Assembly: GCF_054482595.1 (NCBI RefSeq) | Contig: NZ_CM137008.1 | DNA length: 64,000 bases | Direction: 5' to 3' (one strand) | Shown here: piece by piece, positions 3,213 to 31,652 of the stretch | How the letters are laid out: the number at the start of each line of letters is the position of its first letter | Numbering within the stretch: the first letter of the stretch is position 1 | Translations under genes and position numbers: made by a program | The notes under the pieces: generated by a model | The model's database searches: none | What the model was told of the DNA's origin: nothing | The model's input: only the letters and a program-made list of their open reading frames with translations

Positions 3213-3575
3213 ATGTTTCTAAACTATTTCGCGTTGGGAGTGCTGATCTTCGTCTTTCTGGTGATTTTTTATGGAATCATCGCGATACATGACATCCCTT
3301 ATCTGATTGCCAAAAAGCGCAATCACCCCCATGCCGACGCTATTCATACGGCGGGCTGGGTGAGCCTGTTTACTCTGCATGTTATCTGGCCGTTTCTGTG
3401 GATCTGGGCGACGCTCTATCAACCGGAGCGTGGCTGGGGTATGCAGTCACATGTTGCGTCGCAGGAGAAAGCAACTGACCCGGAAATCGCCTCACTTTCT
3501 GACCGAATTTCCCGGCTGGAGCATCAACTCGCCGCCGAGAAAAAGACTGACTATTCCACGTTCCCGGAGATCTAA
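3213..3575 (+). CDS. yibI: small inner-membrane protein (DUF3302 family), partner of YibH
   Basis: The 120-aa ORF opens [45 protein letters not shown]. It is a paralogue of the yiaW product at 21791 and ends 2 nt before yibH. Confidence 0.85.
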
Positions 3576-3577
3576 TT

Positions 3578-5695: not shown

Positions 5696-5700
5696 ATTTT

Positions 5701-6594: not shown

Positions 6595-6620
6595 CGTGCC
6601 GGCGGGAATCCCCCACTGTG
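6154..6620 (-). repeat. third copy of the rhsA core 3' segment (about 0.45 kb)
   Basis: It is near-identical at nucleotide level to 10319-10790 and 8448-8915. For example, ggatcctgagtgatata.cgcccctgcagcgggtcataatagcggtggcggttgtaatacaggcc is present in all three. Confidence 0.9.
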
Positions 6621-6635
6621 CATAGGCAACTCACG

Positions 6636-7478: not shown

Positions 7479-7498
7479 TGCAGGAACCTCCACAAAGG

Positions 7499-7540
7499 CT
7501 ATCTTTTTTTATCGTTTGACTGTCTGGAGTCCTCCACCTA
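7499..7540 (-). other. relic of the 3' end of a K-12-type rhsA toxin tail, still 20 nt upstream of yibA
   Basis: The reverse strand reads TAG GTG GAG GAC TCC AGA CAG TCA AAC GAT AAA AAA AGA TAG, encoding ...SRQSNDKKR*. I recall this as the C-terminus of K-12 RhsA. The 20-nt spacer to the yibA ATG matches the K-12 arrangement as I remember it. Confidence 0.6.
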
Positions 7541-7582
7541 CTCTGCCATCAGCGCACACGATGTTTGATTATCCTTACATAC

Positions 7583-7966
7583 TTATTTTCCGTGGCCAAA
7601 ATTCAGAATTCTCCCATCATTTTTGCCTATTTCTATAATAAAAACCCCACCAGCAATTTGGTCTGAGTGAATGGTACCTTCAACAACCCAACTTGTTGTT
7701 AACTCAGTGATTTCGTATGGTTTTTCTTCTTCTGCGGCATCCTGTCCATAACGATTCTTAACATATATCTCAGCTAATTCCAATGCTATAGCTTTATTTT
7801 TAACCAAATTTCTAACGGTATATTTACCTTCACTTTCATACTTGCGCATTATTTTAATATTATTATTACACTGCGCCCATGTGTTGTATGTAAAAACAAA
7901 CAAAGATACAATGACACATTTCCTAAACAATATTTTTTTACATATTACCATGAACTCTGCAGACAT
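7583..7966 (-). CDS. YbbC/YhhH-type (NTF2-fold) Rhs immunity protein with probable signal peptide
   Basis: The 127-aa ORF contains ...[42 protein letters not shown]...[22 protein letters not shown]. This closely resembles K-12 YbbC/YhhH, the genes immediately 3' of rhsD and rhsB. The hydrophobic N-terminus is [24 protein letters not shown]. It overlaps the upstream toxin ORF by 29 nt, so the true start is uncertain (7966 or 7951). Confidence 0.75.
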
Positions 7967-9407
7967 TAGGTAATCCTTTTCCGTTTGTTATTTCCTTCCC
8001 GTGGTTATCTATTGCTTTAAAATTACCACTGGGCGTACCTAAATAAAATGACTTGATATTGTTATCTTTACTTTTAACTATTTTCTCATCTTTACCTGAA
8101 AATATTTCGTCCCAATATTCTCCATGACTATCTGCACCATGAGTATGATAAGCTGATACTTTCTCAGTACCATTAGGGCAAGGGCTATTGAATGGATATG
8201 ATCCTTTTCTTTCTCCTCGGTTAGGTGCTGTTGAGAAATATCTGCCACTATTATCCTTACATATTAAACCAGCGAACTCTTTATCTTCGCAAATAGATTG
8301 GCTATTTATTTTATTTAAGGCGTCATATGCGGTGCTATCTATAGAATCAAATTTATCTGGACCTATCATAGCGGATAGTGTGCCGCAAAGACCATTAGTA
8401 CATGCCCCCGATTTTGCATCCTCCCACATAGATAAACCCAGGGGGTCGATGTCTGATATCGGATTCAATTGATATCCATACAGGTTCCATCCCCCCTTCA
8501 GCCCAATCGGATCCTGAGTGATATACCTCCCCTGCAGCGGGTCATAATAGCGGTGGCGGTTGTAATACAGGCCGGACTCCTCATCATACTGCTGACCCGG
8601 CAGGCGGATGAGCTGCTGCAGCTGGTGCGGGTTCTCTTCATTCAGCAGGTTGCCCCATTCATCGTATTCTGCGCACCATTCTGTAGCCCCTTCCGTGCTG
8701 ATAAGCGCCAGCGGCAGGCCGCGATGGTCGCAGTGGTACAGGTGGATTTTTCGCGCCGGCGTGTACACCGGGTCCATCTGGTTTTGCATCTGCTCCACCG
8801 TCAGGCCGCACGATGCCAGCCAGCGGCGGCTTTCCTCACTCACCCGGTCAGCCAGGATTTCACTTTCCAGCCGGTCGAGCATCTGCACCAGCACCGGCGG
8901 GAACACCACACTGCCACCGTCTTCGCCGCCGGACTGCTGAAGGGCATCCGCCAGGCTGCGGCGCTGCGTTTTCGCCAGCTCACCGGTGGCAGTTTCGACC
9001 CTGATGAGTGGCGTGAAGCTCCCCGGCTGATAAATCGTCTGGATGCGGCTCCTGTCGTTCTGTATCGTGGTCAGCCGGTCGCCGTCCCAGCCGTACCAGG
9101 TCACTTGCGGTTTCCGTGACAGCGACATCCAGCCCGTCAGGTCCCGTTCACGCCGCCACACCCGTTTTGCCACCCTGCGGCCCAGCGGGTCGTAAAGATA
9201 GCGACTTTCGACCAGCGGCTCTGCATATTGTGTCCGCGTGTAGTGCACCAGCCGGTGCTGACTGTCGTAATGGTACCGGTGGGTGCGCTCATCATCCGTG
9301 CGGATAACCCCTTCCGGGATGAGGTCGGTTTTCTCCGTCAGCCTGCCGTGACGGTCATACCGGTAAAGATAGTGCGCGTCACGGGCGATACGGTTATCCG
9401 GCCACAT
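7938..9407 (-). CDS. orphan Rhs C-terminal fragment: about 325 aa of Rhs core, DPLGL, then a 164-aa RhsD/RhsB-type tail (DUF4329-like)
   Basis: [29 protein letters not shown]... duplicates the rhsA core. DPLGL lies at 8433-8447. The tail [17 protein letters not shown]...[15 protein letters not shown]...[23 protein letters not shown] resembles the K-12 RhsD C-terminus as I recall it. The first ATG is an internal core Met with no Shine-Dalgarno, so the fragment is probably silent unless recombined. Confidence 0.8.
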
Positions 9408-9497
9408 GCTGAGGGCGCTGTCCGGGTGCAGCTCCGGGTCGGGCAGGCGGTTACCTGCCGGGTCTGTGGCATACGGGATATCAATGCCCAGGTTACA
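8448..9497 (-). repeat. second copy of the rhsA core 3' segment (about 1.0 kb)
   Basis: It aligns with 10319-11367 with only scattered substitutions. Protein-level differences include RHGRL/RYGRL, EGVIRT/EGGIRT, ELAKTQ/ELARTQ and ATEWC/ATAWC. Similarity decays at [10 protein letters not shown] versus [10 protein letters not shown]. Confidence 0.9.
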
Positions 9498-9524
9498 TAT
9501 AATAATAAGAGCAATTAACTTAAT

Positions 9525-9851
9525 TTATTTGTTTATAATGCGCTTACTTAATACAAACCATTGAATATACCCTCCTGACAGAAAATAAAGCCATATTATT
9601 ATCGCCATAATATACTTACTATCAATCCTTACGCCAATAATGTCTGATACAGTCCCTATAAATATTAGAGCAATAAAGAATACTATGCCTGTTGGAAAAC
9701 ATATTACCATCATTCCATAAGACATGAGACTAATTAACTCGCTCACATCACGAGTGGAGTCTAATAGTGAAAGTCTATGCATGGAAAAGAATAGTATTAA
9801 AAGCGATAAAGCCAGCCATATAGCTCTGAATAAAAAAATAATATATTTCAT
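9525..9851 (-). CDS. small polytopic membrane protein, presumed cognate immunity (RhsI) for the rhsA C-terminal toxin
   Basis: The 108-aa ORF has three hydrophobic segments (IIFLFRAIWLALSLLILFF, MSYGMMVICFPTGIVFFIALIFIG, IMAIIIWLYFLSGGYIQWFVL). Its ATG (9849-9851) shares one nt with the rhsA TAA (9851-9853), reading TAATG. It is AT-rich. Confidence 0.7.
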   Translation of the reverse strand: MKYIIFLFRAIWLALSLLILFFSMHRLSLLDSTRDVSELISLMSYGMMVICFPTGIVFFIALIFIGTVSDIIGVRIDSKYIMAIIIWLYFLSGGYIQWFVLSKRIINK

Positions 9852-12800
9852 TACATCACTCCGGTGAATACAAATCTAATAAAACGTCCAATGTTATTTC
9901 CGGAGCACTTCATCTTACATGTTTCTAAAGAATCATTAGACCAGTCTTGGCAGTTTTTAAATAGCCCTAAATTTATAGGTGTGAATATATCAGGCAATAC
10001 AGAATAACGCGGCCTTACCTCTTTAAACTTCCCTTTTAAACAGTTCTCCACACAACTATTATCGGTTTCAACGAGGTCACAACGGCCAGCAGCTTCTTTT
10101 GTATCATTACTTGCTTTACCTGGCCCCCATAGACCATCTCCTTTTGATTCTCCCCGTTGGTCTTGGCCACCACAAGTATAGTCCCCTTTACCATCTGGGA
10201 CACAAAGATATTGATGATAGAACGGATTCCCCCATATATCTGGACCGCTTCTTTCACCAGTTCCGCCCATTGAATGCAGTGGCTTAATGCATTTTAGTGT
10301 TTCTAATCCTAATGGATCTATATTTGAGATCGGATTCAACGGATACTGATAAAAATTCCATCCCCCCTTCAGCCCAATCGGATCCTGAGTGATATACCGC
10401 CCCTGCAGCGGGTCATAATAGCGGTGGCGGTTGTAATACAGGCCGGACTCCTCATCATACTGCTGCCCCGGCAGCCGGATAAGCTGCTGCAGCTGATGCG
10501 GGTTCTCTTCATTCAGCAGGTTGCCCCATTCATCATATTCTGCGCACCACGCTGTTGCCCCTTCCGTGCTGATGAGCGCCAGCGGCAGGCCGCGATGGTC
10601 GCAGTGGTACAGGTGGATTTTTCGCGCCGGCGTGTACACCGGGTCCATCTGGTTTTGCATCTGCTCCACGGTCAGGCCGCACGATGCCAGCCAGCGGCGG
10701 CTTTCCTCACTCACCCGGTCAGCCAGGATTTCACTTTCCAGCCGGTCGAGCATCTGCACCAGCACCGGCGGGAACACCACACTGCCACCGTCTTCGCCGC
10801 CGGACTGCTGAAGCGCATCCGCCAGGCTGCGGCGCTGCGTTCTGGCCAGTTCACCGGTGGCAGTTTCAACTCTGATGAGTGGTGTGAAGCTCCCCGGCTG
10901 ATAAATCGTCTGGATGCGGCTCCTGTCGTTCTGTATCGTGGTCAGCCGGTCGCCGTCCCAGCCGTACCAGGTCACTTGCGGTTTCCGTGACAGCGACATC
11001 CAGCCCGTCAGGTCCCGTTCACGTCGCCATACCCGTTTTGCCACCCTGCGGCCCAGCGGGTCGTAAAGATAGCGACTTTCGACCAGCGGCTCTGCATATT
11101 GTGTCCGCGTGTAGTGCACCAGCCGGTGCTGACTGTCGTAATGGTACCGGTGGGTGCGCTCATCATCCGTACGGATACCCCCTTCCGGGATGAGGTCGGT
11201 TTTCTCCGTCAGCCTGCCGTAACGGTCATACCGGTAAAGATAGTGCGCGTCACGGGCGATACGGTTATCCGGCCACATGCTGAGGGTGCTGTCCGGGTGC
11301 AGCTCCGGGTCGGGCAGGCGGTTGCCCGCCGGGTCCGTGGCATACGGGATGCGGATATCCAGATTCGCTGCGGTGGTGTGAACGCCGGTCAGCCTGCCGG
11401 TGGTGCTGTAGCTGTAACTCCGGGTCTGGCGCGGGCTGCTGATGCGGATGAGTTCGCCGTTGTCGTTCCAGGTGTAATCGCGGTCATACTGCAGGCTGTT
11501 CAGGTGCTGACGCTGTAACTGCCCGGCAGGGGTGTAAGCGGTGGTGAGTTCATAACGACCGAAGCTGCGCAGCGTTTCCCGGTGCAGGCGGTCGCGGGTG
11601 AAATCCACCAGCGGTGTGTCGCCGAGCTTCATGCCTGCCAGCCAGCCGCTGCCGTAGGTCAGCCATTCCACGGCGGGCAGGCTGTCCGGTATACAGCGGT
11701 TCGCCAGTCCCTGCGCGTTGTACGCATGTCTGGTCTCATGCTGCCAGAGCAGTGCTTCCGTCTGCGGGTGATGCACCGTCTGGCGCTCACCGGTCAGGCG
11801 GCCTTTCTCATCATACCTGTAATGCACCGCTACCCGGTGCCCTTCGCTGATATGGCTGATGTCTGTCAGCCAGCCACGTTCGTCATACCGCCACCGCTCT
11901 GCGGTTTCACCCTTCACGGTGCGGTGCGTGAGGCGGTCTGCTTCGTCATAGTGCCAGTGGGTGACCAGACCCTCATCCTCGCTGCGGATAAGTTTGCCGG
12001 TCAGGTCGTGGTGATAACGCTGTGTGCGGCCGTCAAAGCCGGTTTCCTGTATCAGCCGGTCAAGTACATCGTAACGGAAGGTGGTGTGGCTGCCGTTTTC
12101 ACTGGTCAGGCGGATGACCCGTCCGGCAGCATCGTATTCCATACTGCGCGTCAGCCCGCCCTGCGTGGTACGGACGGCCTTTCCCCACGCATCGTACTGT
12201 GTCCCGTTTCTGCTGCCGTCCGGGGCAATGACGGCGGTCAGGTCACCGGCGATGTTGTATTCATACCGCGTTTCATGGCCCTGCGTGTCTTTCACGGCAA
12301 TTAACTGTCCACGGCTGTCGTATGCGCGGTACTGGCTCAGCCCTTCCTCGCGGTGCACCGCCGTCATCTGCCCGAAGCGGTCATGGTCATAACGGGTCTG
12401 GTAGCCGGAACAGTCGGTGAAGCTCAGCAACTGGCCGTAACGGCTCCACGTCATGGTTTTCCGGCTGCCGGTGGCATCGTCCGTTGCGCAGGGGAGGTCA
12501 CTGTGTGGATTATCATAACGGTAGCGGGTGATATCGCCGTCAGGGGCGGTTTCCTGAATCAGACGGCCGGATTCATCATATTCCCGGCGCAATTCCAGCC
12601 CGTCAGGCCCGGTGGCTGACGTTAACTGGTTGTGGTGGTTATAGTAAAACGCCGATGCCCTGCCATCCGGCGTGGTTATGCGCGTGATGAGGCCCGTCAC
12701 CACATCCGGGCTGTACTCTGTTGTCCTGCCTGCGGCATCCGTCTGTGCCCTGAGCCTGCCCACGGCGTCAAACTGACTCTGCGTGACGCTGCCGTCCGCG

Positions 12801-14035
12801 TGTTCCTTTTTCACCACCCGCTTCAGCCCGGCTTCGCCCTGCGTGTGCAGCACTTCACGGCGGTCCAGGCTGTCGGTGATGGTGATGCGGTCTTTCTCAT
12901 ACTGATACGTGTAGCTTAAGCCTGCCGGGTTTAGCTGTTCTGTCACCCGCCCGTCGCTGTCGTAACGGTAACGGATTTCCGGCCGGCCCGTGTGACGGTG
13001 CGCCACCATCCGGCCCCGGTATTTATCATCGTAAGTAAAGCTGCGCACCTGTGTATTGCTGCGGTCATACACTGCCGCCAGTTCGCCGCGCGGCGTCCAG
13101 CCATAGCGCACCAGCGGCGCGGCAGGTAAATTCTCCGGGTATTCCGGGTCGTGCGTCAGCCACACGGCAGACAGACGGATGCCGTTGTCCCGGCCATATT
13201 CGGTGTAACCCGGCAGGGTATCAGGAAAAGCGGACGGTTCCGTCCCGCCGGAAATGGCCTGCTGCCGGGCTTCTTCTGCCTGCTGCGCCTGCGTGGTCAG
13301 TACCAGCCGGAAGTGACGCCCGGCACCATCCGTCACGCCGGTGATTTCGCCGCTGAATTCACCGGCGGCTTCGCGGTGGAACGTCTGTGTGCGCCCGAAG
13401 CGGTCCACCAGCCCGGTCAGTACCCGGTACGGCGGCAGCGGCGCAGGCAGCACCTCATCCGCTTCCGGCACCCGCTCACACCACCACCACGGCCCCTGCG
13501 GACTGTTTGTCGCCAGATAACGATGCGGACTTAAGCGGAGTTCTTCCGGCAGCGCCTGCCAGAGTGCGGCCAGCCGGTGACCTTCATCCAGTTTCGCCAC
13601 GCCGCCGCGCACCAGCCACAGTGACTCGCTGCGGCTGTAACCGTCCTCACCGGGAAACAGGTGCTCAAAATACAGGCTTCTGCCGCCGTTATCACTGAGT
13701 ATCAGTGTGTTATCGCGCAGCTGTAAGCGGATATCCGCAGGCATTTTCCAGCCGGGGCCGAGGCTCCCCACCGGCGCGGGCGTTTTTGTCCGGTAACTGC
13801 TGTAGGTGCGGGAGAGGATGAACGGCAGCGGGGCGGGCAGGGCGATGTCGGTTTCACCGGGAAGGACCTTTGCACCGAGCAGGGGATTGACCGGATGGCC
13901 GGACGTCACTCCGCCGGGGCACCCCGAACAGGCCACACCGGTTGGGGCACCGATGCGCACCCCGGCTGAACCCTGAACAATGCTACCGCCATACTGCGTC
14001 ATGTCGCCCTGACGCGCCGCCGGTTTTCCGCTCAT
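9851..14035 (-). CDS. rhsA: Rhs family polymorphic toxin (PAAR-like N-terminus, YD-repeat shell, DPLGL, variable 150-aa Cys-rich C-terminal domain)
   Basis: The ORF is 1394 aa. The N-terminus is [29 protein letters not shown] (literal PAAR). Many YD-type repeats (xYxYDxxGRL) follow, then the core end ...[40 protein letters not shown] (DPLGL at 10304-10318) and the tail at 9854-10303. It is called rhsA from its position next to yibF and yibA, as in K-12. Confidence 0.93.
10319..11367 (-). repeat. rhsA core 3' segment, the master copy of the three direct repeats
   Basis: See 8448-9497 and 6154-6620. All three copies are in the same (minus-strand) orientation. Confidence 0.9.
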
Positions 14036-19707: not shown

Positions 19708-21246
19708 ATGACCAACAATCCCCCTTCAGCACGTGTTCAGCCCGGCGAGTATGGTTTTCCTCTTAAGTTAAAAGCACGCTACGACAACTTTATTGGCGGC
19801 GAATGGGTAGCCCCTGCCGACGGCGAGTATTACCAGAACCTGACGCCGGTGACCGGGCAGCTGCTGTGCGAAGTGGCGTCTTCGGGCAAACGAGACATCG
19901 ATCTGGCGCTGGATGCTGCGCACAAAGTGAAAGATAAATGGGCGCACACCTCGGTGCAGGATCGTGCGGCGATTCTGTTTAAGATTGCCGATCGAATGGA
20001 ACAAAACCTCGAGCTGTTAGCGACAGCTGAAACCTGGGATAACGGCAAACCCATTCGCGAAACCAGTGCTGCGGATGTACCGCTGGCGATTGACCATTTC
20101 CGCTATTTCGCCTCGTGTATTCGGGCGCAGGAAGGTGGGATCAGTGAAGTTGATAGCGAAACCGTGGCCTATCATTTCCATGAACCGTTAGGCGTGGTGG
20201 GGCAGATTATCCCGTGGAACTTCCCGCTGCTGATGGCGAGCTGGAAAATGGCTCCCGCGCTGGCGGCGGGCAACTGTGTGGTGCTGAAACCCGCACGTCT
20301 TACCCCGCTTTCTGTACTGCTGCTAATGGAAATCGTCGGTGATTTACTGCCGCCGGGCGTGGTGAACGTGGTCAACGGTGCAGGTGGGGAAATTGGCGAA
20401 TATCTGGCGACCTCGAAACGCATCGCCAAAGTGGCGTTTACCGGCTCAACGGAAGTGGGCCAACAAATTATGCAATACGCAACGCAAAACATTATTCCGG
20501 TGACGCTGGAGCTGGGCGGTAAGTCGCCAAATATCTTCTTTGCTGATGTGATGGATGAAGAAGATGCCTTTTTCGATAAAGCGCTGGAAGGCTTTGCACT
20601 GTTTGCCTTTAACCAGGGCGAAGTTTGCACCTGTCCGAGTCGTGCCTTAGTGCAGGAGTCAATCTACGAACGCTTTATGGAACGCGCCATCCGCCGTGTC
20701 GAAAGCATTCGCAGCGGTAACCCACTCGACAGCGTGACGCAAATGGGTGCGCAGGTTTCTCACGGGCAACTGGAAACCATCCTCAACTACATTGATATCG
20801 GTAAAAAAGAGGGCGCAGACGTGCTCACCGGCGGGCGGCGCAAGCTGCTGGAAGGCGAACTGAAAGACGGCTACTACCTTGAACCGACGATTCTGTTTGG
20901 TCAGAACAATATGCGGGTGTTCCAGGAAGAGATTTTTGGCCCGGTGCTGGCGGTGACCACCTTCAAAACGATGGAAGAAGCGCTGGAGCTGGCGAACGAT
21001 ACGCAATATGGCCTGGGCGCAGGTGTCTGGAGCCGCAACGGTAATCTGGCCTATAAGATGGGGCGCGGCATTCAGGCCGGGCGCGTGTGGACCAACTGTT
21101 ATCACGCTTACCCGGCACATGCGGCGTTTGGCGGCTACAAACAATCAGGCATTGGACGCGAAACCCACAAGATGATGCTGGAGCATTACCAGCAAACCAA
21201 GTGCCTGCTGGTGAGCTACTCAGATAAACCGTTGGGGCTGTTCTGA
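19708..21246 (+). CDS. aldB: aldehyde dehydrogenase B
   Basis: [33 protein letters not shown]... gives 512 aa from the ATG at 19708, preceded by AAGGAG. The ALDH motifs ELGGKSP and EVCTCPSR are present. The 558-aa track ORF is a 5' over-extension. Confidence 0.93.
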
Positions 21247-21249
21247 TGT

Positions 21250-21365
21250 AAGAAGCTGGTCGCATCGGGTATTCATTGCCTGATGCGACGCTTACGCGTC
21301 TTATCATGCCTACGGGGACCTGACCGTAGGCCGGATAAGGCGTACACGCCGCATCCGGCATAAAC
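21250..21365. repeat. REP/BIME elements downstream of aldB
   Basis: gcctgatgcgacgcttacgcgtcttatcatgcctac and gtaggccggataaggcgtacacgccgcatccggca are canonical REP palindromic units. Confidence 0.8.
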
Positions 21366-21464
21366 AAAGCGCACGTTGTTACAATTTACGTTTTAAACCT
21401 ACGTGTGCAATAACCCAGACTACGCCAACAAAAGTGCGTTTCTGGGGCGTGTTTTGCCAGGAGT

Positions 21465-21608
21465 TTAATCTCGCGTTTCGATGGTGAGCGGGCAAACCAG
21501 ACCGTAAATCACCATTGGTATTCCGAGGACAATCAGCAATAAACGGTAGATTATTGAAGGTTTAATACGCTTAATCTGCATTGTGGATGTTTTACGGTTT
21601 TTAATCAT
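21465..21608 (-). CDS. candidate 47-aa single-TM small protein (hypothetical)
   Basis: My own translation gives MIKNRKTSTMQIKRIKPSIIYRLLLIVLGIPMVIYGLVCPLTIETRD*. It has a basic N-terminus and one hydrophobic helix. It is below the ORF-track cutoff and I see no convincing Shine-Dalgarno. Confidence 0.25.
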   Translation of the reverse strand: MIKNRKTSTMQIKRIKPSIIYRLLLIVLGIPMVIYGLVCPLTIETRD

Positions 21609-21790
21609 AAATTTGGCCAATAGTTCCATTATTTCAATATGATAAGCCTCGACCTGTTAAAAAGCCAGGCAGCACACTTCAGGAAGTATATAAAAAACAA
21701 TATGTCGTTATATAAATAAGGAAATTGCACTGCATCATGGCATTTCATAATATGCGTTAATTGTTCTTTTTTATATTCTCTGAGGGAAAT

Positions 21791-22114
21791 ATGTTCCTGG
21801 ACTATTTTGCACTGGGAGTGCTTATTTTTGTATTTCTGGTGATATTCTATGGGATTATTATTTTACATGATATTCCCTACCTGATTGCTAAAAAACGTAA
21901 TCATCCTCATGCCGACGCCATTCATGTTGCAGGTTGGGTGAGTCTTTTTACGTTACATGTTATCTGGCCGTTTTTGTGGATTTGGGCCACGCTTTACCGC
22001 CCGGAGCGGGGATGGGGAATGCAAAGCCATGATTCATCCGTTATGCAACTGCAACAGCGCATTGCCGGGCTGGAGAAACAGCTCGCCGACATCAAATCCT
22101 CTTCTGCCGAGTAA
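21791..22114 (+). CDS. yiaW: small inner-membrane protein (DUF3302 family), partner of YiaV
   Basis: [45 protein letters not shown]... gives 107 aa from the ATG at 21791, with GAGGGA upstream. Confidence 0.88.
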
Positions 22115-22119
22115 TACTT

Positions 22120-23256
22120 ATGGATTTACTGATTATTTTGACCTATGTGGCTTTTGCATGGGCAATGTTTAAGATCTTCAAAATTCCCGTAAATAAATGG
22201 ACCATTCCCACAGCGGCCTTGGGTGGAATATTTATTGTCAGCGGTCTAATTCTGTTAATGAACTATAACCATCCGTATACCTTTAAAGCGCAAAAAGCGG
22301 TTATTTCTATTCCTGTTGTCCCACAGGTGACTGGTGTGGTGATTGAAGTGACGGATAAGAAAAATACGCTGATTAAAAAAGGTGAAGTGCTATTTCGACT
22401 GGACCCGACGCGTTATCAGGCGCGGGTGGATCGGCTGATGGCGGATATCGTTACCGCAGAACATAAACAGCGGGCGTTGGGCGCAGAGTTAGATGAGATG
22501 GTGGCGAATACTCAGCAGGCAAAGGCCACGCGGGATAAATTCGCTAAAGAGTATCAGCGTTACGCACGCGGCAGCCAGGCGAAAGTAAACCCGTTTTCAG
22601 AACGCGATATCGATGTGGCGCGGCAAAATTATCTGGCGCAGGAAGCCTCCGTAAAGTCATCGGCAGCGGAACAAAAACAGATCCAGAGCCAGCTGGATAG
22701 CCTGGTGTTGGGTGAACATTCTCAAATCGCCAGCCTGAAAGCGCAGCTCGCGGAAGCAAAATATAACCTTGAGCAGACGATAGTGCGTGCGCCGAGCGAT
22801 GGTTATGTGACCCAGGTACTGATTCGTCCGGGTACCTATGCCGCGTCGCTGCCGCTACGTCCGGTGATGGTGTTTATACCCGATCAGAAACGACAAATCG
22901 TGGCGCAGTTCCGTCAGAACTCCTTGCTGCGCCTGGCTCCCGGCGATGATGCGGAAGTGGTATTTAACGCTCTGCCAGGCAAAGTGTTCAGCGGTAAGCT
23001 GGCAGCCATTAGTCCAGCTGTTCCCGGCGGAGCTTATCAGTCGACCGGCACCTTACAGACGTTAAACACAGCGCCGGGTTCAGATGGCGTTATCGCGACC
23101 ATTGAACTGAATGAGCACACTGATTTGAGCGCTTTACCAGACGGTATTTACGCCCAGGTGGCGGTCTACTCTGATCATTTCAGCCATGTCTCGGTGATGC
23201 GCAAAGTGTTATTACGTATGACCAGCTGGGTGCATTACCTTTATCTCGATCATTAA
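22120..23256 (+). CDS. yiaV: HlyD-family membrane-fusion-like protein
   Basis: The ORF is 378 aa and a paralogue of yibH, with the same length and C-terminus. Confidence 0.9.
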
Positions 23257-24227
23257 TCTTCGCTTTCCGCCGCTTGTTCAGGCCGCAATTGCTGCGACTG
23301 AGCAAGCTGGTGGCGAATTTCACGCAGCATTTCATCCAGCACATACTGGACCCGCCAGGGCTGGTATTCCCGTTTACGGAAGATAGCCACCAGATCCAGC
23401 CACCATTCATACGGGTGCTGAAAGCAGGGCACCAGCGTGCCGTCTTGCAGATCGCTCTGCACACTTTTGTCTGGCGCAAACACAATCCCCAGGTGATTTC
23501 GTGCCAGCTCCAGCGCCGATTGCGTGTTGTCGCAAACGTAATTTCCCTTCACGCGATAATCCCGCACCTCTTTACTCCCGGCGACGTTGAAGCGCCAGAT
23601 ATTCGCGTCGTCGATCATCATCGAGTCGATCAAAATACAGGAGTGATGTTCGAGTTCGTCAGGACGGCTAATAGGATGTTTCTCAAGATAGCGCTGGCTG
23701 GCATAAGCGGTTACGGCATATTGTGTAATAAAACTGGCAACCAGCGATTCATCTTTTGGTGGAGCGTAGCTGATTAAAACATCACAGTCATCAGGAAATT
23801 CGACGCCTTCATAAAAGGCATTACGCTCAAGATTGCAGGTTTTTAGCGATAAGGTGATATCACCGATATCTTTAATTTTATCGATTACATGTTTGGATAA
23901 ATAGGTAATTATGCCGGTTGGGGCGTAGATGGTGACCCGACCACGTTTCTCATGCTTATAATCTGCAATAAAATTATTAAGCTGCTCGTTTCTGTCCAGC
24001 ATGTCGTTGATGTACGGTAACAGCGCGGTACCAAAAGGTGTGAGCATCAGCTGCCGGGTGGTTCGGTCAAAGACTTTTAAACCCACTTTTGATTCAAAAT
24101 CAGCAAGATATTTGCTGACGTTGGCCTGTGCGATGCCAAGTACAGTCGCGGCATGGCTGATATTTTCACTGGCAGCGATTACCGAGATAATTTTTAACTC
24201 CCGGTACTTAAGTTGTAATTTTGTCAT
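23253..24227 (-). CDS. yiaU: LysR-family transcriptional regulator
   Basis: The ORF is 324 aa with an N-terminal wHTH ([32 protein letters not shown]). It is convergent with yiaV and overlaps it by 4 nt. Confidence 0.9.
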
Positions 24228-24350
24228 CGCAACAGCCCAATTATATATAATTTTATATATTACTATATAAATATGAATCTTGCACCGGAGAAATTGTAAG
24301 CATTACTATGCCGACTCTTTTTTATCTTATTTTAAAATGGAATACCGGAC

Positions 24351-25091
24351 ATGTTAATTAACCGCAATATTGTGGCGTTATTTGCGTTGCCTTTTATGGC
24401 AAGCGCAACTGCTTCTGAATTATCCATTGGTGCTGGTGCGGCTTATAATGAATCGCCTTATCGCGGTTATAATGAAAATACAAAGGCAATTCCGCTGATT
24501 AGCTATGAAGGTGATACTTTTTATGTTCGTCAGACCACGTTAGGTTTTATTCTGTCGCAAAGTGAAAAAAATGAACTTAGCCTGACCGCATCCTGGATGC
24601 CGCTGGAATTTGACCCTGCCGATAATGACGATTATGCCATGCAACAGCTTGATAAGCGTGATAGTACGGCTATGGCGGGGGTTGCCTGGTATCACCACGA
24701 GCGTTGGGGAACCGTGAAAGCCTCTGCAGCTGCGGACGTTCTGGATAACAGCAACGGCTGGGTGGGGGAGCTATCGGTATTCCACAAAATGCAGATAGGT
24801 CGTCTGTCGCTGACACCTGCGCTGGGCGTTCTCTATTATGACGAGAATTTCAGTGACTATTACTATGGCATTTCAGAGAGTGAGTCCCGTCGTAGCGGTC
24901 TGGCAAGTTATTCCGCGCAGGATGCCTGGGTGCCCTATGTCAGCCTGACGGCAAAATACCCGATAGGAGAGCACGTCGTATTGATGGCGAGCGCAGGATA
25001 CAGCGAGCTGCCGGAAGAGATTACCGACAGCCCGATGATTGATCGTAATGAGAGTTTTACCTTCGTCACCGGCGTGAGCTGGCGTTTTTAA
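24351..25091 (+). CDS. yiaT: MipA/OmpV-family outer-membrane protein
   Basis: The ORF is 246 aa with signal peptide MLINRNIVALFALPFMASATA. It has beta-barrel-like alternation ending in ...FVTGVSWRF. Confidence 0.9.
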   Translation: MLINRNIVALFALPFMASATASELSIGAGAAYNESPYRGYNENTKAIPLISYEGDTFYVRQTTLGFILSQSEKNELSLTASWMPLEFDPADNDDYAMQQLDKRDSTAMAGVAWYHHERWGTVKASAAADVLDNSNGWVGELSVFHKMQIGRLSLTPALGVLYYDENFSDYYYGISESESRRSGLASYSAQDAWVPYVSLTAKYPIGEHVVLMASAGYSELPEEITDSPMIDRNESFTFVTGVSWRF

Positions 25092-25094
25092 TTC

Positions 25095-25222
25095 ACCGGT
25101 GGATGTCGGTGCGGCTGGCCTACGCTCTCGCACCGACTTGTATGCCTGATAAGACGTGTTAAGCGTCGCATCAGGCAATGTGCTCCTTACGTTGGATGCG
25201 GCGCGAGTGCCTTATCCAACCT
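25095..25222. repeat. REP elements at the left border of the sugar island
   Basis: gcctgataagacgtgttaagcgtcgcatcaggc and ggatgcggcgcgagtgccttatccaacctacgg are present. The second abuts the GH127 stop codon. Confidence 0.75.
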
Positions 25223-27191
25223 ACGGATGGCAATGCTTTTCCTCATTCACCCAGATCCGCATTTCGCCTTCACCCCGGTTGGCCCAGCTAAACCACGGGA
25301 TAAAGGTCAGAGTTTGCGTCTGGCGTTTGGCTGGCGCGCTGTCGTAATGCCACAGCGGTTGCTGCTCTGGATTGCTCTGTTCATACCGGTAACCCGGTGC
25401 CTGGATTAAGATCTTATGGCTAAACAATCCATTGCCTTCAAATGTCGTAAATGGCGCATCGGTGGGCAGCCACAGATTATGCAGTGACTCGCCGTTGTCG
25501 GCCTGTTCCAGGCAATACACCAGCGGGCCGCGCTGAATCGCCACTTTTCCGGCGACGTGACGCACCAGCGGGTTACCGTAAACGCGACGTACTGGCATCG
25601 GCAAAGTCAGATTCAGCGTGTCGCCCTCCTGCCATTCGCGGGTAATGTGCAAATACCCTTTACGAATATCCTGCTCGACCTCTTCCCCATTCAATATGAT
25701 CTGCGGCTGTGTGCACCAGTCCGGCAGACGTAAAGCAAGTGTATGACGCACCGGCTGGGGCGATTCGACCGCAATCGTCACCTGTTCCTGCCACGGATAG
25801 TTCCCGCTAACCCGCAGGCGCAGCGTGCCATTTTCTACCGGCACTTCCATGCTGTTTCCTGCGTATATGTTGATATACAACGCATCTTCTCGCGGCGTGT
25901 AGAGATAATGACCAATCGAGGTCAGCACGCGGGCGATATTTGGCGGACAACAAGCGCAGCCAAACCAACGCTGGCGGATCGGTTTAACGTGATCGTAGAT
26001 ATGGTTGAATTTCAGCGATTTTGGATGTACTTCCAGCGGATTCACATAGAAGAAATGTTTGCCATCCAGCGCCATGCCGCCGAGCACGGTGTTGTACAGT
26101 GCGCGCTCCATCACATCGGCATATTGACTGTCGCCTTCCATTTCCAGCATTCGTCGGGCAAACATCATCAGGCCGATGGAGGCGCAACTTTCAGCGTATA
26201 CCGTGTCATTCGGCAGATCGTAATCGCTGCTGAACGCTTCACCGCTGCTCTGTGAGCCAATGCCGCCGGTAATATATAACTGACGCTGGGCCATATTGTT
26301 CCACAGCCGCAGGCAGTTCTGACGCTTGCTGTCATCGTGACTTAAACGCGCGAGATGCGCGACGCCGGTCATCAGATAGACAAAACGTACCGCGTGACCG
26401 ATGGCGGTTTGCTGTTGCGCAAGGGGCAAATGTGCCTGGCTGTAGGCTTTGTCTTTCACCATCCACGCCGGGCCGTAGGTGTGCCAGTGCGATGTCTGCC
26501 CGCGCTTTTCATATTCCTGGTCGTAATAGTGCGGTTGCGCACCACGTTGTTCGACAAAATAGTTCGTCAGTGCCAGGTAGCGCGGCTCTTCGGTCACTTC
26601 ATACAGACGCATCAGTGCCAGTTCAATTTCCGGGTGACCAGGGTAACCGTGTAACTTACTTTCATCTGGACCAAACACGCTGTCGATATGATCGGCCAGA
26701 CGGCAAACCACTTCCAGCAAGCGCCGCTTGCCCGTGGCCTGGAAGAAGGCGACTCCAGCTTCAATCAGATGACCTGCGCAGTAAAGTTCATGACACTCCG
26801 CCAGATTGCTCCAGCGTTCTTCGGGTGCTTTTACCGTAAAGTAAGTATTGAGATAGCCGTCTTCGCATTGGGCGGAGGCGATCAGTTCGATTACCTCGTC
26901 GGCGGTTTTTTCCAGTTCGGCGTCTGGCTTCTGGCACAGCGACCAGGCTACCGCTTCCAGCCATTTGGCGACATCGCTGTCCTGAAACACCATCCCGTAA
27001 AATTCACCCTCCTGAAGTCCGGCGGCAATGCGAAAGTTTTCAATCGCATGGCTGGGTTCCGCTTCTGGTATACGATCGTTCAAGGCATCCCACTGATAAG
27101 GAATCACCACGTCGCGGACCAGTTGTTGGTACTGACCGAGAAACGGATCGCTGACCGTCAGTTTATGCAGATCGACTTCCGAAATGTTCAT
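25221..27191 (-). CDS. glycoside hydrolase family 127 (DUF1680; beta-L-arabinofuranosidase-type)
   Basis: The CDS is 656 aa from the ATG at 27189-27191, with AAGGAG 6 nt upstream overlapping the transporter stop. It contains AESCAS and FGCACCPPN. I recall these as the Glu/Cys Zn-site and catalytic-Cys motifs of GH127 (HypBA1). The 672-aa track ORF is over-extended. Confidence 0.8.
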   Translation of the reverse strand: MNISEVDLHKLTVSDPFLGQYQQLVRDVVIPYQWDALNDRIPEAEPSHAIENFRIAAGLQEGEFYGMVFQDSDVAKWLEAVAWSLCQKPDAELEKTADEVIELIASAQCEDGYLNTYFTVKAPEERWSNLAECHELYCAGHLIEAGVAFFQATGKRRLLEVVCRLADHIDSVFGPDESKLHGYPGHPEIELALMRLYEVTEEPRYLALTNYFVEQRGAQPHYYDQEYEKRGQTSHWHTYGPAWMVKDKAYSQAHLPLAQQQTAIGHAVRFVYLMTGVAHLARLSHDDSKRQNCLRLWNNMAQRQLYITGGIGSQSSGEAFSSDYDLPNDTVYAESCASIGLMMFARRMLEMEGDSQYADVMERALYNTVLGGMALDGKHFFYVNPLEVHPKSLKFNHIYDHVKPIRQRWFGCACCPPNIARVLTSIGHYLYTPREDALYINIYAGNSMEVPVENGTLRLRVSGNYPWQEQVTIAVESPQPVRHTLALRLPDWCTQPQIILNGEEVEQDIRKGYLHITREWQEGDTLNLTLPMPVRRVYGNPLVRHVAGKVAIQRGPLVYCLEQADNGESLHNLWLPTDAPFTTFEGNGLFSHKILIQAPGYRYEQSNPEQQPLWHYDSAPAKRQTQTLTFIPWFSWANRGEGEMRIWVNEEKHCHP

Positions 27192-27201
27192 CTTGTGCTC
27201 C

Positions 27202-28602
27202 TTAAGGCTGTACATGACGCTGACGCAGGTCGGTAGCAATGCGTGACATCATAGGGTTATTGAGTTTGCAAAAGCGGATCGCCCCTGCCAGCAGCAGGTG
27301 GAATAGCGCAGGCAGTAATGTTTCCATCGCCGTGATCCCGCCAAGCGAACTGGTGGTCTGGTTTTCCACGCCTGGCTGGTAGGCGACAAAAATAAACAGC
27401 AGGCTGATGATCCCGGCGCTGGAGGCCCAGGCCAGCTTGATGAAAAACAGATTGAAGGCGAAGTTCATGCCGGAAGAACGTACGCGGGTTTTCCACTCGC
27501 CGTAGTCATCGGCAAAGGCCATCAATGAGAAGTGCAGTGGCAATGTGAAGCCAAGAATCACGCCATTACCGAGGATCACCGCCAGCCACAGCGTTTGATA
27601 AGCCGGGCCGGAGGGCAGGAACCACATCAACACCGCCAGTGCAGCGAGGAGCAGGTTGGTGTAGTAATAAATTTTGACGGTATCGAAACGCCGCGTTAAC
27701 GGGCTGACAATCACCGAGCCGATAATGGAGGCGAAGGTGACCATGGTGAAGAACAGCGACGTGTAGCCCGTGCTGCCTTGTAAGACGTAGGTAATGAAGT
27801 ACATATACCCACCGCCGCGAATATTAAAGACGTTAATCAGCAGGAAAGACATGACCAGCATCAGCAGCAGTTGGTCGTTGTTCCGCAGCCCGGCAAGATG
27901 TTCGCGCAGGGTAAATTTCCCCATTGTGGAGAGTGGCACCCGTTCACGAACCCAGAAAAAACAGCACAGGAACATCACCACGGCAATGGCGCACAGCACG
28001 CCGACGCCCAATTGATAGCCGCGCGCGGCATTACCCTGACCGAAGAGATCTACCATCCACGGTAAGCCTACCGAAACCAGAAATCCCGCTACGCCACAGA
28101 GAACGAATCGCCAGGACTGGCAGGAGATCACTTCATTGTGGCGGGTGGTCATGGTGTTGATCAGCGCGCAGTACGGTACGTTGATGGCGGTATAACCGAC
28201 TGAAAGGAGCAGGTAAGTACCGAACGCCCAGGCGATTTTTACTCCCATGCTGGCATCTGGCACGGTGAACGTCAGGATGCCGATAATGCCGATGGGAATG
28301 GCAATCCATAGCTGCCACGGACGAAAGCGCCCCCAGCGACTTTGCGTCCGGTCGGCAATGACGCCCATCACCGGGTCGGAGATGGCATCAAACACGCGCA
28401 GTGCAATAAACAGCGTGCCAACCAGCGCCGGAGTTAATCCAAAAACGTCGGTGTAGAAAAAGGTGAGAAAGTTCATGATCAGGCAAGTTATTACGGTGCC
28501 GCCTGCGTCACCCAGGCCGTAGCCTATTTTTTCCCGTACCGATAACGCATCGTCAATTTTACCTTTAGCGATATCAGCGGTAGTAATCGGTGTAGAGGTC
28601 AT
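27202..28602 (-). CDS. glycoside-pentoside-hexuronide (GPH) family sugar:cation symporter
   Basis: The 466-aa polytopic ORF carries an N-terminal [13 protein letters not shown] motif typical of the MelB/YicJ/UidB family. It forms a tight operon with the GH127 gene. Confidence 0.85.
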
Positions 28603-28740
28603 AGATATTCCTCGTGAATAGGGAGCAATTTTTAGTTTTATTGAAATGACCTGATTAATTCTGCCGTGAACGGGAATATCAACAAGGCGAGAAAAGAGTA
28701 AAAAAAGGTGACGATTCCGACCTGAATTTAAAAGTGTGAA

Positions 28741-29643
28741 ATGGATCAGGTGAAATTAATGTTTTTTATTAATAATCAAAAGGTAATGTGTTTTGTCATT
28801 AATGAAGAAGCGGGAAATTACATATCAATGCTCGAATTATCCATGACGTTACCGATTAAAGTGCAAAATGGTGGATTATTTATTTCCCGTGGCGTAGGGA
28901 GGCATCCTGCAAGGCGGCTGGAGTCATGGGAAATTATCTTTGTCGAAAAAGGTCGATTAACGATTCAGGAAGAAGAACGGATATTTCTGGTCGATGCGGG
29001 AGAGAGTTTATTACTCTGGCCGAACCGACAACATGTTGGGGTGGAGGATTTTCCCGCCGATCTCAAATTTTACTGGCTGCATTTTGAGGTTAAAGCGCCG
29101 GACAACGACCCTCGCTGGCTTACTCATCTTAGCGTGCCGCAACAAACGAAGGTTGTCGATCCGCAGGCGCTGGTGGCCCTGTTTCGCCAGTTCTTAAGCG
29201 AACAGGAAAAGCATCAACGCACTCCGGCGCTGGAGTTTATTGTGCTGCTCATTTTGCAGCAGCTCACCCGTGACGCGCGTCTTGATGAACAGGCCGATGG
29301 CGCAGGCACCACCCTTGCCTGGAAAGCGCAGAAACTGATCCGCACGCAATATCATCGCCCGCTTTCTACGGTGCTTCTGGCCCGCGAGCTGTACTGCAAT
29401 GCCGATTATCTTGGGCGCGTCTACCGGCGGGTGTTTCATCTGACGTTAACAGAAGCAATCCATCGCCAGCGGGTGCGCGAAGCCGAAAAGCTGTTAATTA
29501 GCGAAGCGCGATCGCTCACGGAAGTGGCGGCGTTGTGCGGGTTTAATGACGTTGGCTATTTCCGGCAGATTTTTCGCAAACACACCGGTTTAACGCCAGC
29601 AGCGTGGAAGCGGCGTTACAGCAAGGAACATATCAATTCGTAG
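28741..29643 (+). CDS. AraC/XylS-family transcriptional regulator (cupin sensor plus C-terminal double HTH)
   Basis: The C-terminus reads ...[81 protein letters not shown]. It is divergent from the transporter/GH127 operon. The start is uncertain; in-frame ATGs at 28828 and 28843 are alternatives. Confidence 0.8.
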
Positions 29644-29785
29644 TGCCGTGTCGATTTCGCTTTCGACATCACGTCTGAAACAGGTGGGGGAGAAAAATCT
29701 CCTGAAACCACTGCGTGAAACCGCGCAGGCTATTTCTAATGAACTGGGATTTACTGTCAGGGATGACCTTGGCGCGATCACATAA
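29642..29785 (+). pseudogene. yiaJ: 47-codon relic of an IclR-family regulator 3' end (presumed yiaJ remnant)
   Basis: The frame gives [47 protein letters not shown]. This is an IclR effector-domain C-terminal pattern with no upstream remainder. It begins at the AraC stop codon and lies immediately upstream of ysaA on the same strand, which is where yiaJ sits in K-12. Confidence 0.65.
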
Positions 29786-29886
29786 CGCTTTGGACAAGTG
29801 CCAAAACTTTAACATTTCCTTCGTTGGATCAAAGCAGTAGGGACGTGCTCTCTGGCACTCTGCTGTTTTAGTGCAAAGGAGTGATC

Positions 29887-30360
29887 ATGAACCGGTTTAT
29901 TATTGCGGATGCGACGAAATGTATCGGTTGCCGTACCTGTGAAGTGGCTTGCGCAGTGTCGCATCAGGAGAATCAGGATTGCGCTGCGTTGTCACCAGAC
30001 GAGTTTATTTCCCGTATTCGTGTTATTAAAGACCACAGCTGGACCACGGCAGTAGCCTGTCATCAGTGTGAAGATGCACCGTGCGCGAATGTCTGCCCTG
30101 TTGACGCGATAAGCCGCGAACATGGGCATATTTTCGTTGAACAATCACGTTGCATTGGCTGTAAAAGCTGTATGCTGGCTTGCCCGTTTGGTGCGATGGA
30201 GGTCGTTTCTTCGCGCAAAAAGGCGAGGGCGATTAAGTGCGATCTGTGCTGGCATCGGGCGACGGGACCGGCCTGTGTTGAAGCCTGCCCGACAAAGGCG
30301 TTGCAGTGCATGGATGTCGAGAAAGTGCAGCGGCATCGGCTACGGCAGCAGCCTGTTTGA
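29887..30360 (+). CDS. ysaA: 4Fe-4S ferredoxin-type protein
   Basis: MNRFIIADATKCIGCRTCEVACAVSH... gives 157 aa with several CxxCxxCxxxC(P) clusters. AAGGAG lies upstream of the ATG at 29887. Confidence 0.9.
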   Translation: MNRFIIADATKCIGCRTCEVACAVSHQENQDCAALSPDEFISRIRVIKDHSWTTAVACHQCEDAPCANVCPVDAISREHGHIFVEQSRCIGCKSCMLACPFGAMEVVSSRKKARAIKCDLCWHRATGPACVEACPTKALQCMDVEKVQRHRLRQQPV

Positions 30361-30398
30361 AACGTTTTTCCGGCGTTTCTCAACGCCGGAATAGCGTA

Positions 30399-31652
30399 TT
30401 AATGGCTTTCAGCCCAGGCGCGTTCAATCTCTTCCGCCAGAATCTTCACACCCGCCTCAATTTTCTCCGGCTCCGGCACGTAGTTCATGCGCATACATTG
30501 ATGTGTATGTGGCCACGGTTTATCCAGTCCTGGGAAGAAGTTGTGCCCCGGCACCATCAGCACGCCGCGTGCTTTCAGGCGCTGATAGAGCTGCTCGGTC
30601 GTAATGGGCAAATCCTTAAACCATAGCCAGAGGAAAATGGCTCCTTCCGGTTTATGAATCAGGCAGCGATTTTCCGGTAAATAGCGGCGAATGATGGCGA
30701 TAGTTTCCTGAACACGCTGGTAGTAAAACGGTTTGATGACTGTTTCAGACAGGCGCAGCAGATCGTTACGCTTAATCATTTCACACATCATCGCCGGACC
30801 AATACCGCCAGGTGCCAGGCTGATAATGCCGTTCATATTGGTGATGGCGGTGATGATTTTTTCATTGGCGATGATAATGCCGCAGCGGGAGCCAGGTAGA
30901 CCCAGCTTGGAAAGACTCATGCACAGCACGATATTCGGATTCCATAGCGGGCGCGCTTCACTGAAGATGATACCCGGGAACGGGACGCCATAAGCGTTAT
31001 CAATCACCAGCGGAATGCCGTGTTGATTCGCCAGCGCGTCAAGCTTCAGCAACTCTTCGTCAGTAATCACATTGCCTGTTGGATTCGTCGGCCGGGAGAC
31101 GCAAATCATCCCGGTTTCTTCGCCAATATGCAGATGCTCAAAATCGACGTGGTATTTAAACTGGCCTTCAGGCAGCAGTTCAATATTCGGACGCGCAGAG
31201 ACAAACAGATCTTCTTCCAGTCCGGCGTCAGCGTAGCCAATGTATTCCGGTGCCAGCGGGAACAGCACTTTTTTGACCCGACCATCGGCACGGCGTCCGG
31301 CAAATAGATTAAATAAGTAGAAAAACGCGCTCTGGCTGCCGTTTGTTAGTGCAATATTCTGTGGTTCGATATCCCAACCCAACTTCTCGTGCAGCATTCC
31401 GGCAAGCAGTGTGAGTAGCTCCGTTTTCCCCTGTGGACCGTCGTAATTGCACAGTGCATCAGTCGCTTTGCCACTTTCCAGCATGTCGGTCAGTAGCGTC
31501 TGGAAGTAGTCCTGCATTTCCGGGATCTGCGCCGGATTACCGCCGCCGAGCATAATCGCGCCAGGCGTGCGTAAACCGTCGTTCAGATCTTCCATCAGCA
31601 GCGTAATGCCGGAGTGGCGGGTAAATTTGTCACCAAAAAGGGAGAATGTCAT
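30399..31652 (-). CDS. avtA: valine-pyruvate aminotransferase
   Basis: MTFSLFGDKFTRHSGITLLMEDLNDGL... gives 417 aa from the ATG at 31650-31652, with a PLP-Lys region SLSKLGLPG. The track ORF is over-extended by 35 codons. Confidence 0.93.
   Translation of the reverse strand: MTFSLFGDKFTRHSGITLLMEDLNDGLRTPGAIMLGGGNPAQIPEMQDYFQTLLTDMLESGKATDALCNYDGPQGKTELLTLLAGMLHEKLGWDIEPQNIALTNGSQSAFFYLFNLFAGRRADGRVKKVLFPLAPEYIGYADAGLEEDLFVSARPNIELLPEGQFKYHVDFEHLHIGEETGMICVSRPTNPTGNVITDEELLKLDALANQHGIPLVIDNAYGVPFPGIIFSEARPLWNPNIVLCMSLSKLGLPGSRCGIIIANEKIITAITNMNGIISLAPGGIGPAMMCEMIKRNDLLRLSETVIKPFYYQRVQETIAIIRRYLPENRCLIHKPEGAIFLWLWFKDLPITTEQLYQRLKARGVLMVPGHNFFPGLDKPWPHTHQCMRMNYVPEPEKIEAGVKILAEEIERAWAESH

Follow-up and report, generated by a model that had tools for sequence, protein, structure and literature searches.

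A three-gene cassette of the Escherichia coli chromosome, encoding a GH127 glycoside hydrolase, a GPH:cation symporter and a divergent AraC-type regulator, lies between yiaT and ysaA in the 64,000-nucleotide (nt) stretch of contig NZ_CM137008.1 (assembly GCF_054482595.1) that we analysed, here called the 64-kb window and numbered from its first letter. We propose that this layout arose from a BL21-like ancestor, in which the cassette and the neighbouring yia-sgb module were both present, through a deletion of about 9 kb, and that the cassette imports and cleaves a beta-L-arabinofuranoside; we give this reading a probability of roughly 0.8. Positions 24300-30400 are 100% identical to E. coli strain XH990 (NZ_CP019359.1), and the gene content was agreed by a mechanical listing of open reading frames (ORFs), by Pfam and by the RefSeq annotation of XH990.

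Deletion junction between yiaT and ysaA

The evidence for a deletion comes from comparison with BL21, in which the order is yiaT, GH127, GPH, AraC, sgbE-sgbU-sgbH-lyxK-yiaONMLK, yiaJ and ysaA, so that both modules stand in tandem. In blastn the window is collinear with BL21 over 20000-29655, that is, until 12 nt beyond the stop codon of the AraC-family gene, and the alignment restarts at 29645 in the 3′ end of yiaJ and continues into ysaA, the two segments overlapping by 11 bp. The yiaJ-ysaA segment is 98.8% identical to BL21 at the nucleotide level, and the proteins of the window are 98-99.6% identical to those of BL21. By tblastn, residues 234-282 of the 282 residues of YiaJ are matched at 29636-29782 with 94% identity, corresponding to the last 49 codons, and RefSeq labels 29645-29785 as ‘IclR ... 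C-terminal domain, missing N-terminus’. A truncated yiaJ thus runs into its native downstream spacer, which only a deletion can explain, here with the loss of about 9 kb.

In a three-way alignment the joint reads ...TCGTAGT-GCCG-TGTCGATTTCGC..., with the 5′ arm of the AraC/sgbE terminator hairpin to the left and yiaJ sequence to the right. An exact microhomology, GCCG, is found at 29645-29648, within an imperfect 11-nt match and 2 nt past the AraC stop codon. A single illegitimate deletion at the GCCG microhomology thus removed from the ancestor with both modules everything between this point and yiaJ codon 233, codon 233 included.

The features of 24351-30360, with the evidence for each, are as follows.

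24351-25091, plus strand: yiaT, encoding a MipA/OmpV family outer-membrane protein; left flank, outside the cassette (PF06629, E 5e-52; RefSeq, XH990).
25105-25227, no strand: hairpin and repetitive extragenic palindrome (REP) cluster, intergenic, overlapping the GH127 stop codon (REP consensus; inverted repeats I1-I3).
25221-27191, minus strand: GH127 glycoside hydrolase, 656 amino acids (three GH127 Pfam domains).
27192-27204, minus strand: translational coupling joint between the transporter and GH127 genes (sequence read directly).
27202-28602, minus strand: GPH:cation symporter, 466 amino acids, first gene of the two-gene operon (PF13347, TIGR00792).
28603-28827, no strand: divergent regulatory region (MAFFT footprint, composition profile).
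28828-29643, plus strand: AraC/XylS-family regulator, 271 amino acids, divergent from the operon (PF02311, PF12833; RefSeq start).
29644-29655, no strand: deletion junction, AraC side and yiaJ side (blastn overlap of the two BL21 segments, three-way alignment, identical junction in Escherichia sp. E1V33).
29645-29785, plus strand: yiaJ 3′ remnant, pseudogene, 141 bp (RefSeq pseudogene; tblastn; blastn to BL21).
29887-30360, plus strand: ysaA, encoding a 4Fe-4S protein; right flank, outside the cassette, followed by avtA and malS (Pfam Fer4 families; RefSeq).

An initial annotation of this stretch had treated 25092-29785 as a cassette standing in place of the K-12 yia-sgb genes. Its three genes and the REP elements are indeed there, but the last 141 bp of the interval are the yiaJ remnant, which it overlooked. 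Its statement that K-12 has a yia-sgb locus of about 10 kb between yiaT and ysaA proved accurate, as K-12-type genomes have in this interval ~9.5 kb with yiaJ, yiaKLMNO, lyxK and sgbHUE; and the yiaK-sgbE genes are, as it had said, absent from the yiaT-ysaA interval of the window.

We also considered whether yia-sgb had moved elsewhere in the genome, a finding that the initial annotation had named as fatal to a replacement. No homologue of any gene from yiaK to sgbE occurs in the 64-kb window, and with a composite probe, in which 2 kb around the junction of the window was joined to 1.2 kb of lyxK-yiaO and which matched at one place only, no lyxK-yiaO match was found genome-wide in XH990 or in the 59 other best-ranked junction genomes. 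Because of the single place given by the composite probe and the lack of homologues in the window, we reject a relocation of yia-sgb in these genomes.

Structural alleles in E. coli and the case against cassette exchange

Alleles were counted over 5,426 complete E. coli genomes. The cassette core is present in 2,317 of them (43%) and absent from 57%. The intact AraC-sgbE junction, with both modules adjacent, occurs in 1,893 genomes, BL21 among them, and the AraC, yiaJ-remnant, ysaA junction of the window in 426 (~8%; this count rests on a 601-bp probe); together these make 2,319, near the 2,317 genomes with a cassette. A 44-bp junction probe found 77 genomes only; short megablast queries demand near-perfect identity, and that count was not used. 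The window junction is carried by strains of O157:H7, O145:H28, O157:H16, O169:H41 and O78, as well as by many that are untyped, and their hosts are diverse. The lyxK-yiaON genes are found in 4,905 genomes and the K-12 scar in 2,461, the K-12-type deletion being the commonest allele.

K-12-type genomes match BL21 minus most of the cassette, of which there is left a 190-bp GH127 fragment (~89% identity) and, from the 3′ end of the AraC gene, 116 bp. In MG1655 (NZ_CP032679.1, 3745308-3745601) both fragments lie between sgbE and yiaT, where the annotation has them as pieces of pseudogenes, and the GH127 scar appears as a 189-bp ‘hypothetical protein’, ~89% identical to the intact gene within flanks that are ~98% identical. 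Since the window keeps a yiaJ remnant and K-12 keeps GH127 and AraC remnants, the two layouts are reciprocal deletions from a two-module state; K-12 is the reciprocal derivative, in which the GH127 unit was lost and yia-sgb was kept.

The initial annotation had suggested a different history, in which the GH127 unit and yia-sgb are alternative occupants of one yiaT-ysaA hotspot, swapped at flanking REPs. This is what K-12 and the window (or O157) alone would convey, each having one module in the same interval, and REP elements do adjoin yiaT. The modules are not, however, mutually exclusive, being in tandem in 1,893 E. coli genomes and adjacent in 30 of 80 loci from other enterobacterial species (see below), and each single-module layout retains truncated pieces of the other module. 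One side of the window junction falls in a terminator hairpin and the other within yiaJ, neither of them at a REP. The REPs themselves are found only on the yiaT side of the cassette, where a perfect match to the 33-nt consensus lies at 25144-25176 on the minus strand (0 expected by chance), with a degenerate second REP at ~25190-25227 and a hairpin with a 9-bp stem at 25105-25137; this cluster resembles the REP downstream of aldB. The cassette is thus REP-adjoined as had been noted, but on one side, with the junction elsewhere. No integrase, insertion sequence (IS) element or tRNA is annotated by RefSeq near the cassette, and its G+C content, at 0.53-0.56, is like that of its flanks. Comparing E. 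coli genomes across this junction therefore shows reciprocal deletions and not replacement, and we regard an exchange as extremely improbable.

The contrast with the K-islands and O-islands described between K-12 and O157:H7 is instructive: when two genomes are compared, the window layout, as carried by O157:H7 and O145:H28, resembles an island replacement, whereas thousands of genomes reveal two adjacent modules that have undergone reciprocal deletions, with no exchange and no mobile island. A mobile genomic island as such is ruled out by the lack of mobility genes, the normal G+C content and the family-wide synteny of the locus.

Further layouts were seen among the E. coli genomes. A fourth, Nissle-type allele (NZ_CP172017.1) has aldB followed directly by a divergent yia-sgb operon, without yiaW, yiaV, yiaU, yiaT or the cassette, and with an additional DUF4862 gene between yiaM and yiaL. 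In ~1,053 genomes lyxK-yiaON is just 80-90% identical to the BL21 allele, and the Nissle-type locus may carry this divergent lyxK-yiaON allele. E. coli IH5 (NZ_CP168949.1, 5061920-5062873) has only a 954-bp GH127 piece, adjoining a DUF2207 gene, and two genomes have the cassette core at two places (2,319 places in 2,317 genomes); we regard both as additional rearrangements of a rare kind.

Conservation beyond E. coli

A survey of one genome per species for close relatives of the GH127 protein (79-96% amino-acid identity) gave 80 enterobacterial loci, in Citrobacter, Kluyvera, Klebsiella, Raoultella, Enterobacter, Lelliottia, Leclercia, Scandinavium, Phytobacter, Kosakonia, Pantoea and other genera. 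The AraC-GPH-GH127 triad is present in the same order in 79 of the 80. The neighbour on the AraC side is sgbE in 30 loci, ysaA in 19 and avtA in 7, and the other flank is usually yiaT, aldB or yiaY. Because order and flanks are kept across species, we take the cassette to be an old syntenic resident and yia-sgb its patchier neighbour.

This patchiness could be turned into an argument for the opposite polarity, with the cassette-only layout ancestral in Escherichia and yia-sgb inserted later in other lineages: the gene next to AraC is sgbE in 30 loci and ysaA or avtA in 26 of the 80, and the non-Escherichia loci in which ysaA adjoins AraC hold no yiaJ remnant, so that at the level of the family yia-sgb may have been gained. 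Against an insertion within Escherichia, the supposedly ‘empty’ site of the window and of Escherichia sp. E1V33 contains the 3′ end of yiaJ, 49-54 codons long, in frame and with the native yiaJ-ysaA spacer, for which truncation of a complete gene is the sole explanation. We find insertion of yia-sgb into a cassette-only Escherichia ancestor most unlikely.

Escherichia sp. E1V33 (NZ_RHJI01000013.1; ~7250-7700 of the locus sequence compared) has the identical junction of AraC and yiaJ, with the yiaJ remnant, in a locus of ~90% nucleotide identity to that of the window. This common junction suggests that the allele is either old or has moved between lineages by homologous recombination. In E1V33 the 3′ side of GH127 is not adjoined by yiaT.

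Given that 57% of complete E. coli genomes are without the cassette, and that no other allele is as common as the K-12-type deletion, the locus could also be cryptic or decaying, its genes intact but unexpressed or useless in E. coli and heading for loss as in K-12. Such decay is hard to reconcile with three intact reading frames, with proteins 98-99.6% identical between the window and BL21, with a GH127 protein kept at 79-96% identity across the 80 species loci and with conserved promoter motifs (described below), all of which point to purifying selection; we think it distinctly unlikely that the locus is on its way out.

The GH127 enzyme

The product of the downstream gene of the operon scores above the gathering cut-off for three Pfam domains, PF07944 (377.6 bits, E 8e-113), PF20736 (84.2 bits) and PF20737 (89.0 bits), and so has the three-domain architecture of the family: a catalytic (alpha/alpha)6 domain, a middle beta-sandwich and a C-terminal domain. 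The initial assignment of this 656-residue protein to GH127 is hence well founded, and the AESCAS and GCACCPPN motifs on which it drew are present in the alignment.

The closest solved relative is Geobacillus Ara127N (PDB 4qjy; E 5e-234), with 55% identity over residues 11-650, end to end; as a crystal structure exists at this identity, the fold can be regarded as settled. Ara127N (4qjy/4qk0) is from a Gram-positive thermophile, Geobacillus stearothermophilus T6. Its gene context, an arabinan utilisation cluster, differs from that of the cassette. The Bifidobacterium longum enzyme HypBA1 (PDB 3wkw) is matched with E 2e-151, and the remaining GH127 structures have much lower scores that cover only the C-terminal two-thirds of the protein.

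In HypBA1, C417 is the nucleophile and E322 the acid/base, and zinc is held by a (Cys)3-Glu site made of E338, C340, C417 and C418 (PMC8106489). When the two proteins are aligned, E318, E334, C336, C414 and C415 of the E. coli enzyme are identical to E322, E338, C340, C417 and C418 of HypBA1, so that the two share three-domain GH127 architecture, cysteine nucleophile, acid/base glutamate and (Cys)3-Glu zinc site. The N-terminus, MNISEVDLHKLTVSDPF... (MNISEVDLHK...), holds no hydrophobic signal sequence, and the enzyme is predicted to be cytoplasmic. HypBA1 is likewise intracellular and cleaves imported beta-Ara2 (Araf-beta1,2-Araf, where Araf is arabinofuranose) (PMC7263609), and the likeness may extend to the predicted cytoplasmic action on a small oligosaccharide once it has been imported. 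Cleavage of terminal beta-L-arabinofuranosyl groups (EC 3.2.1.185) is the activity predicted from homology to two beta-L-arabinofuranosidases that have been characterised or crystallised. The surroundings of the two enzymes differ: the bifidobacterial hypBA system has an ATP-binding cassette (ABC) importer and extracellular GH121 and GH43 partners, whereas the E. coli cassette has a GPH symporter and an AraC-type regulator, and RefSeq annotates no partner hydrolase near it.

Transporter, regulator and divergent promoter region

The symporter scores 331.7 bits against TIGR00792 (GPH; cut-off 231.35) over positions 1-437 of the 437 of this 12-helix profile, and matches PF13347 with E 6e-73. Its nearest named NCBIfam subfamily is YagG; since its scores fall under the equivalog or subfamily cut-offs of YagG, MelB and UidB, it forms a separate GPH subfamily. 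The transporter gene ends ...CCT TAA GGAG CACAAG ATG, so that, as had been observed initially, the Shine-Dalgarno sequence of GH127 (AAGGAG) overlaps the TAA stop codon (27204-27202), 6 nt before the ATG (27191).

The regulator scores above the cut-offs of PF12833 (69.6 bits), PF00165 (39.1 bits) and PF02311 (38.8 bits), and has both the C-terminal double helix-turn-helix and the N-terminal AraC-type ligand-binding (cupin) domain that mark the AraC family; its score is too low for any of the named equivalogs, AraC, RhaS/R and MelR included. With Pfam, TIGR00792 and RefSeq in agreement, the identities first given to all three genes stand. We place the regulator start at 28828, which is the RefSeq start codon and the ATG from which N-terminal coding is conserved across genera; a longer ORF from 28741 probably does not have the true start.

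The divergent region between transporter and regulator (28603-28827) is low in G+C (~0.40), and a MAFFT alignment of 19 enterobacterial genera revealed invariant blocks within it. These include a conserved CRP-like half-site pair, TGTGAAATGGATCAGG, at 28735-28750, and a conserved 28-nt block at 28697-28724 (...AAAAAGGTGACGATTCCGACCT) that could be a site for the regulator; a weak −35 (28681-28686) and −10 (28659-28664) on the minus strand are putative promoter elements of the transporter operon. Read in the transporter sense, GATCnnnnTCACAnTTT, AGGTCGGAATYGTCAYCTTTTTWTACT, CCTTGTTG and GCAGAAT within 28658-28750 are invariant across the 19 genera. A scan of the divergent region for sigma-70 and terminator consensus found no convincing promoter, and promoter-like sites were fewer than in shuffled sequence. 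Taken together the region may fit an activator-dependent promoter of the melR/melAB type. In the mel system a divergent AraC-family activator acts together with CRP. The E. coli melR/melAB system and the K-12 pairs yicJ-yicI and yagG-yagH resemble the cassette in that a GPH:cation symporter is co-transcribed with a cytoplasmic glycoside hydrolase; they differ from it in hydrolase family and presumed substrate, and the order in the cassette is transporter, then hydrolase.

A model for cassette function

We favour, with moderate confidence, a role for the cassette in glycoside uptake followed by cytoplasmic hydrolysis to L-arabinose, regulated by the AraC-type protein. The symporter would take in a small beta-L-arabinofuranoside, a likely candidate being Araf-beta1,2-Araf or another di- or trisaccharide like it. 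Other microbes, of the gut or of plants, may free this substrate from plant extensins or from pectic arabinan; we look to other organisms or to plant turnover as its source because no GH121-type releasing enzyme is encoded at the locus. The cytoplasmic GH127 enzyme, acting as a cysteine-nucleophile, zinc-dependent retaining hydrolase, would then release L-arabinose, which could enter the araBAD pathway. In response to the glycoside, the AraC-type protein, probably together with CRP, would activate the weak promoter of the operon.

Several points weigh against the reading with which we began. The GH127 family includes enzymes of other specificities, and the protein has a match to the aceric acid hydrolase model (NF049879 equivalog), at 458 bits against a 950-bit cut-off. 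The E. coli locus has no GH121-type enzyme that would free beta-arabinobiose. The promoter and CRP assignments made above come solely from conservation and weak consensus matches. The junction common to the window and E1V33 may reflect either one ancient event or transfer between lineages. Finally, the searchable literature yielded no biochemical or genetic study of an enterobacterial GH127 enzyme, transporter or regulator of this kind.

The first of these points bears on whether the cassette might serve a different glycan, its substrate being aceric acid, a 3,6-anhydro-D-galactoside or another furanoside. Polyspecificity of GH127 gives this some weight, as does the listing of GH127 in carrageenan catabolism (PMC5698469) and the partial match to the aceric acid model. 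That match, though, reaches less than half of the cut-off, and its best stretch covers residues 252-649 only, which places the protein outside the aceric acid hydrolase equivalog; the best full-length solved relatives are the two beta-L-arabinofuranosidases named above, at E 5e-234 and 2e-151. We therefore hold a different substrate to be rather unlikely, and retain a beta-L-arabinofuranoside as the predicted one.

Other features of the window

Away from the cassette, the aldB-yiaW stretch (21250-22250) has a low G+C content of 0.36-0.43 and encodes, on the minus strand, a hypothetical protein of 47 residues (RefSeq WP_152936587.1). In the ysaA-avtA gap BL21 has ~120 bp of additional REP-like DNA that is absent from the window (window 30392-30398 versus 29079-29198 of the BL21 locus sequence), and which is similar to the REP of the window at 21326-21377, downstream of aldB. 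The products of yibI and yibH (DUF3302 and HlyD-family; 3213-4714) are 75-77% identical, at the amino-acid level, to their paralogues from yiaW and yiaV (21791-23256), so that yibI-yibH and yiaW-yiaV form a duplicated pair with ~18 kb between the copies. In the Rhs region (5174-14035) rhsC is intact but rhsB truncated, and there are also fragments of RHS cores, an Imm57 immunity gene and a yibA with an internal stop; its layout upstream of yibF is unlike that of BL21 and of K-12-type genomes.

Meaning for E. coli and the Enterobacteriaceae

Cassette and remnant are already annotated in RefSeq, as GH127, a major facilitator superfamily (MFS) transporter, AraC and a yiaJ pseudogene fragment. GH127 has also been listed as a clade-variable accessory carbohydrate-active enzyme (CAZyme) of E. 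coli (bioRxiv 10.1101/2021.10.19.464957) and reported to co-segregate with invasive isolates from inflammatory bowel disease (IBD) (PMC11879602), its function in both cases being inferred from HypBA1; a paper on arabinose in O157 does not mention the cassette locus. The design of the cassette, with a regulator, a GPH symporter and a cytoplasmic glycosidase of a known enzyme family, is standard, and the structural polymorphism is a strain-to-strain difference caused by ordinary reciprocal gene loss. Our findings are of little importance beyond correct bookkeeping. K-12 itself is a deletion derivative which still bears scars, and the three genes are a long-standing, syntenic unit of the Enterobacteriaceae and no recent import; there is left a modest and easily tested metabolic question, that of the substrate and of the ligand of the regulator.

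We can also suggest, as a speculation that we ourselves rate as doubtful, that the three alleles (both modules, GH127 only and yia-sgb only) form a long-lived trans-species polymorphism under niche-dependent selection, with cassette-dependent cross-feeding; this draws on the exact junction of AraC and yiaJ being common to E. coli lineages and to an Escherichia that is ~10% diverged. If this were true, the cassette-bearing 43% of E. coli, O157:H7 and O145:H28 among them, would cross-feed on beta-L-arabino-oligosaccharides from extensins or pectin, freed by bifidobacteria or plant-associated microbes, and would thereby be using a carbon source undescribed for E. coli.

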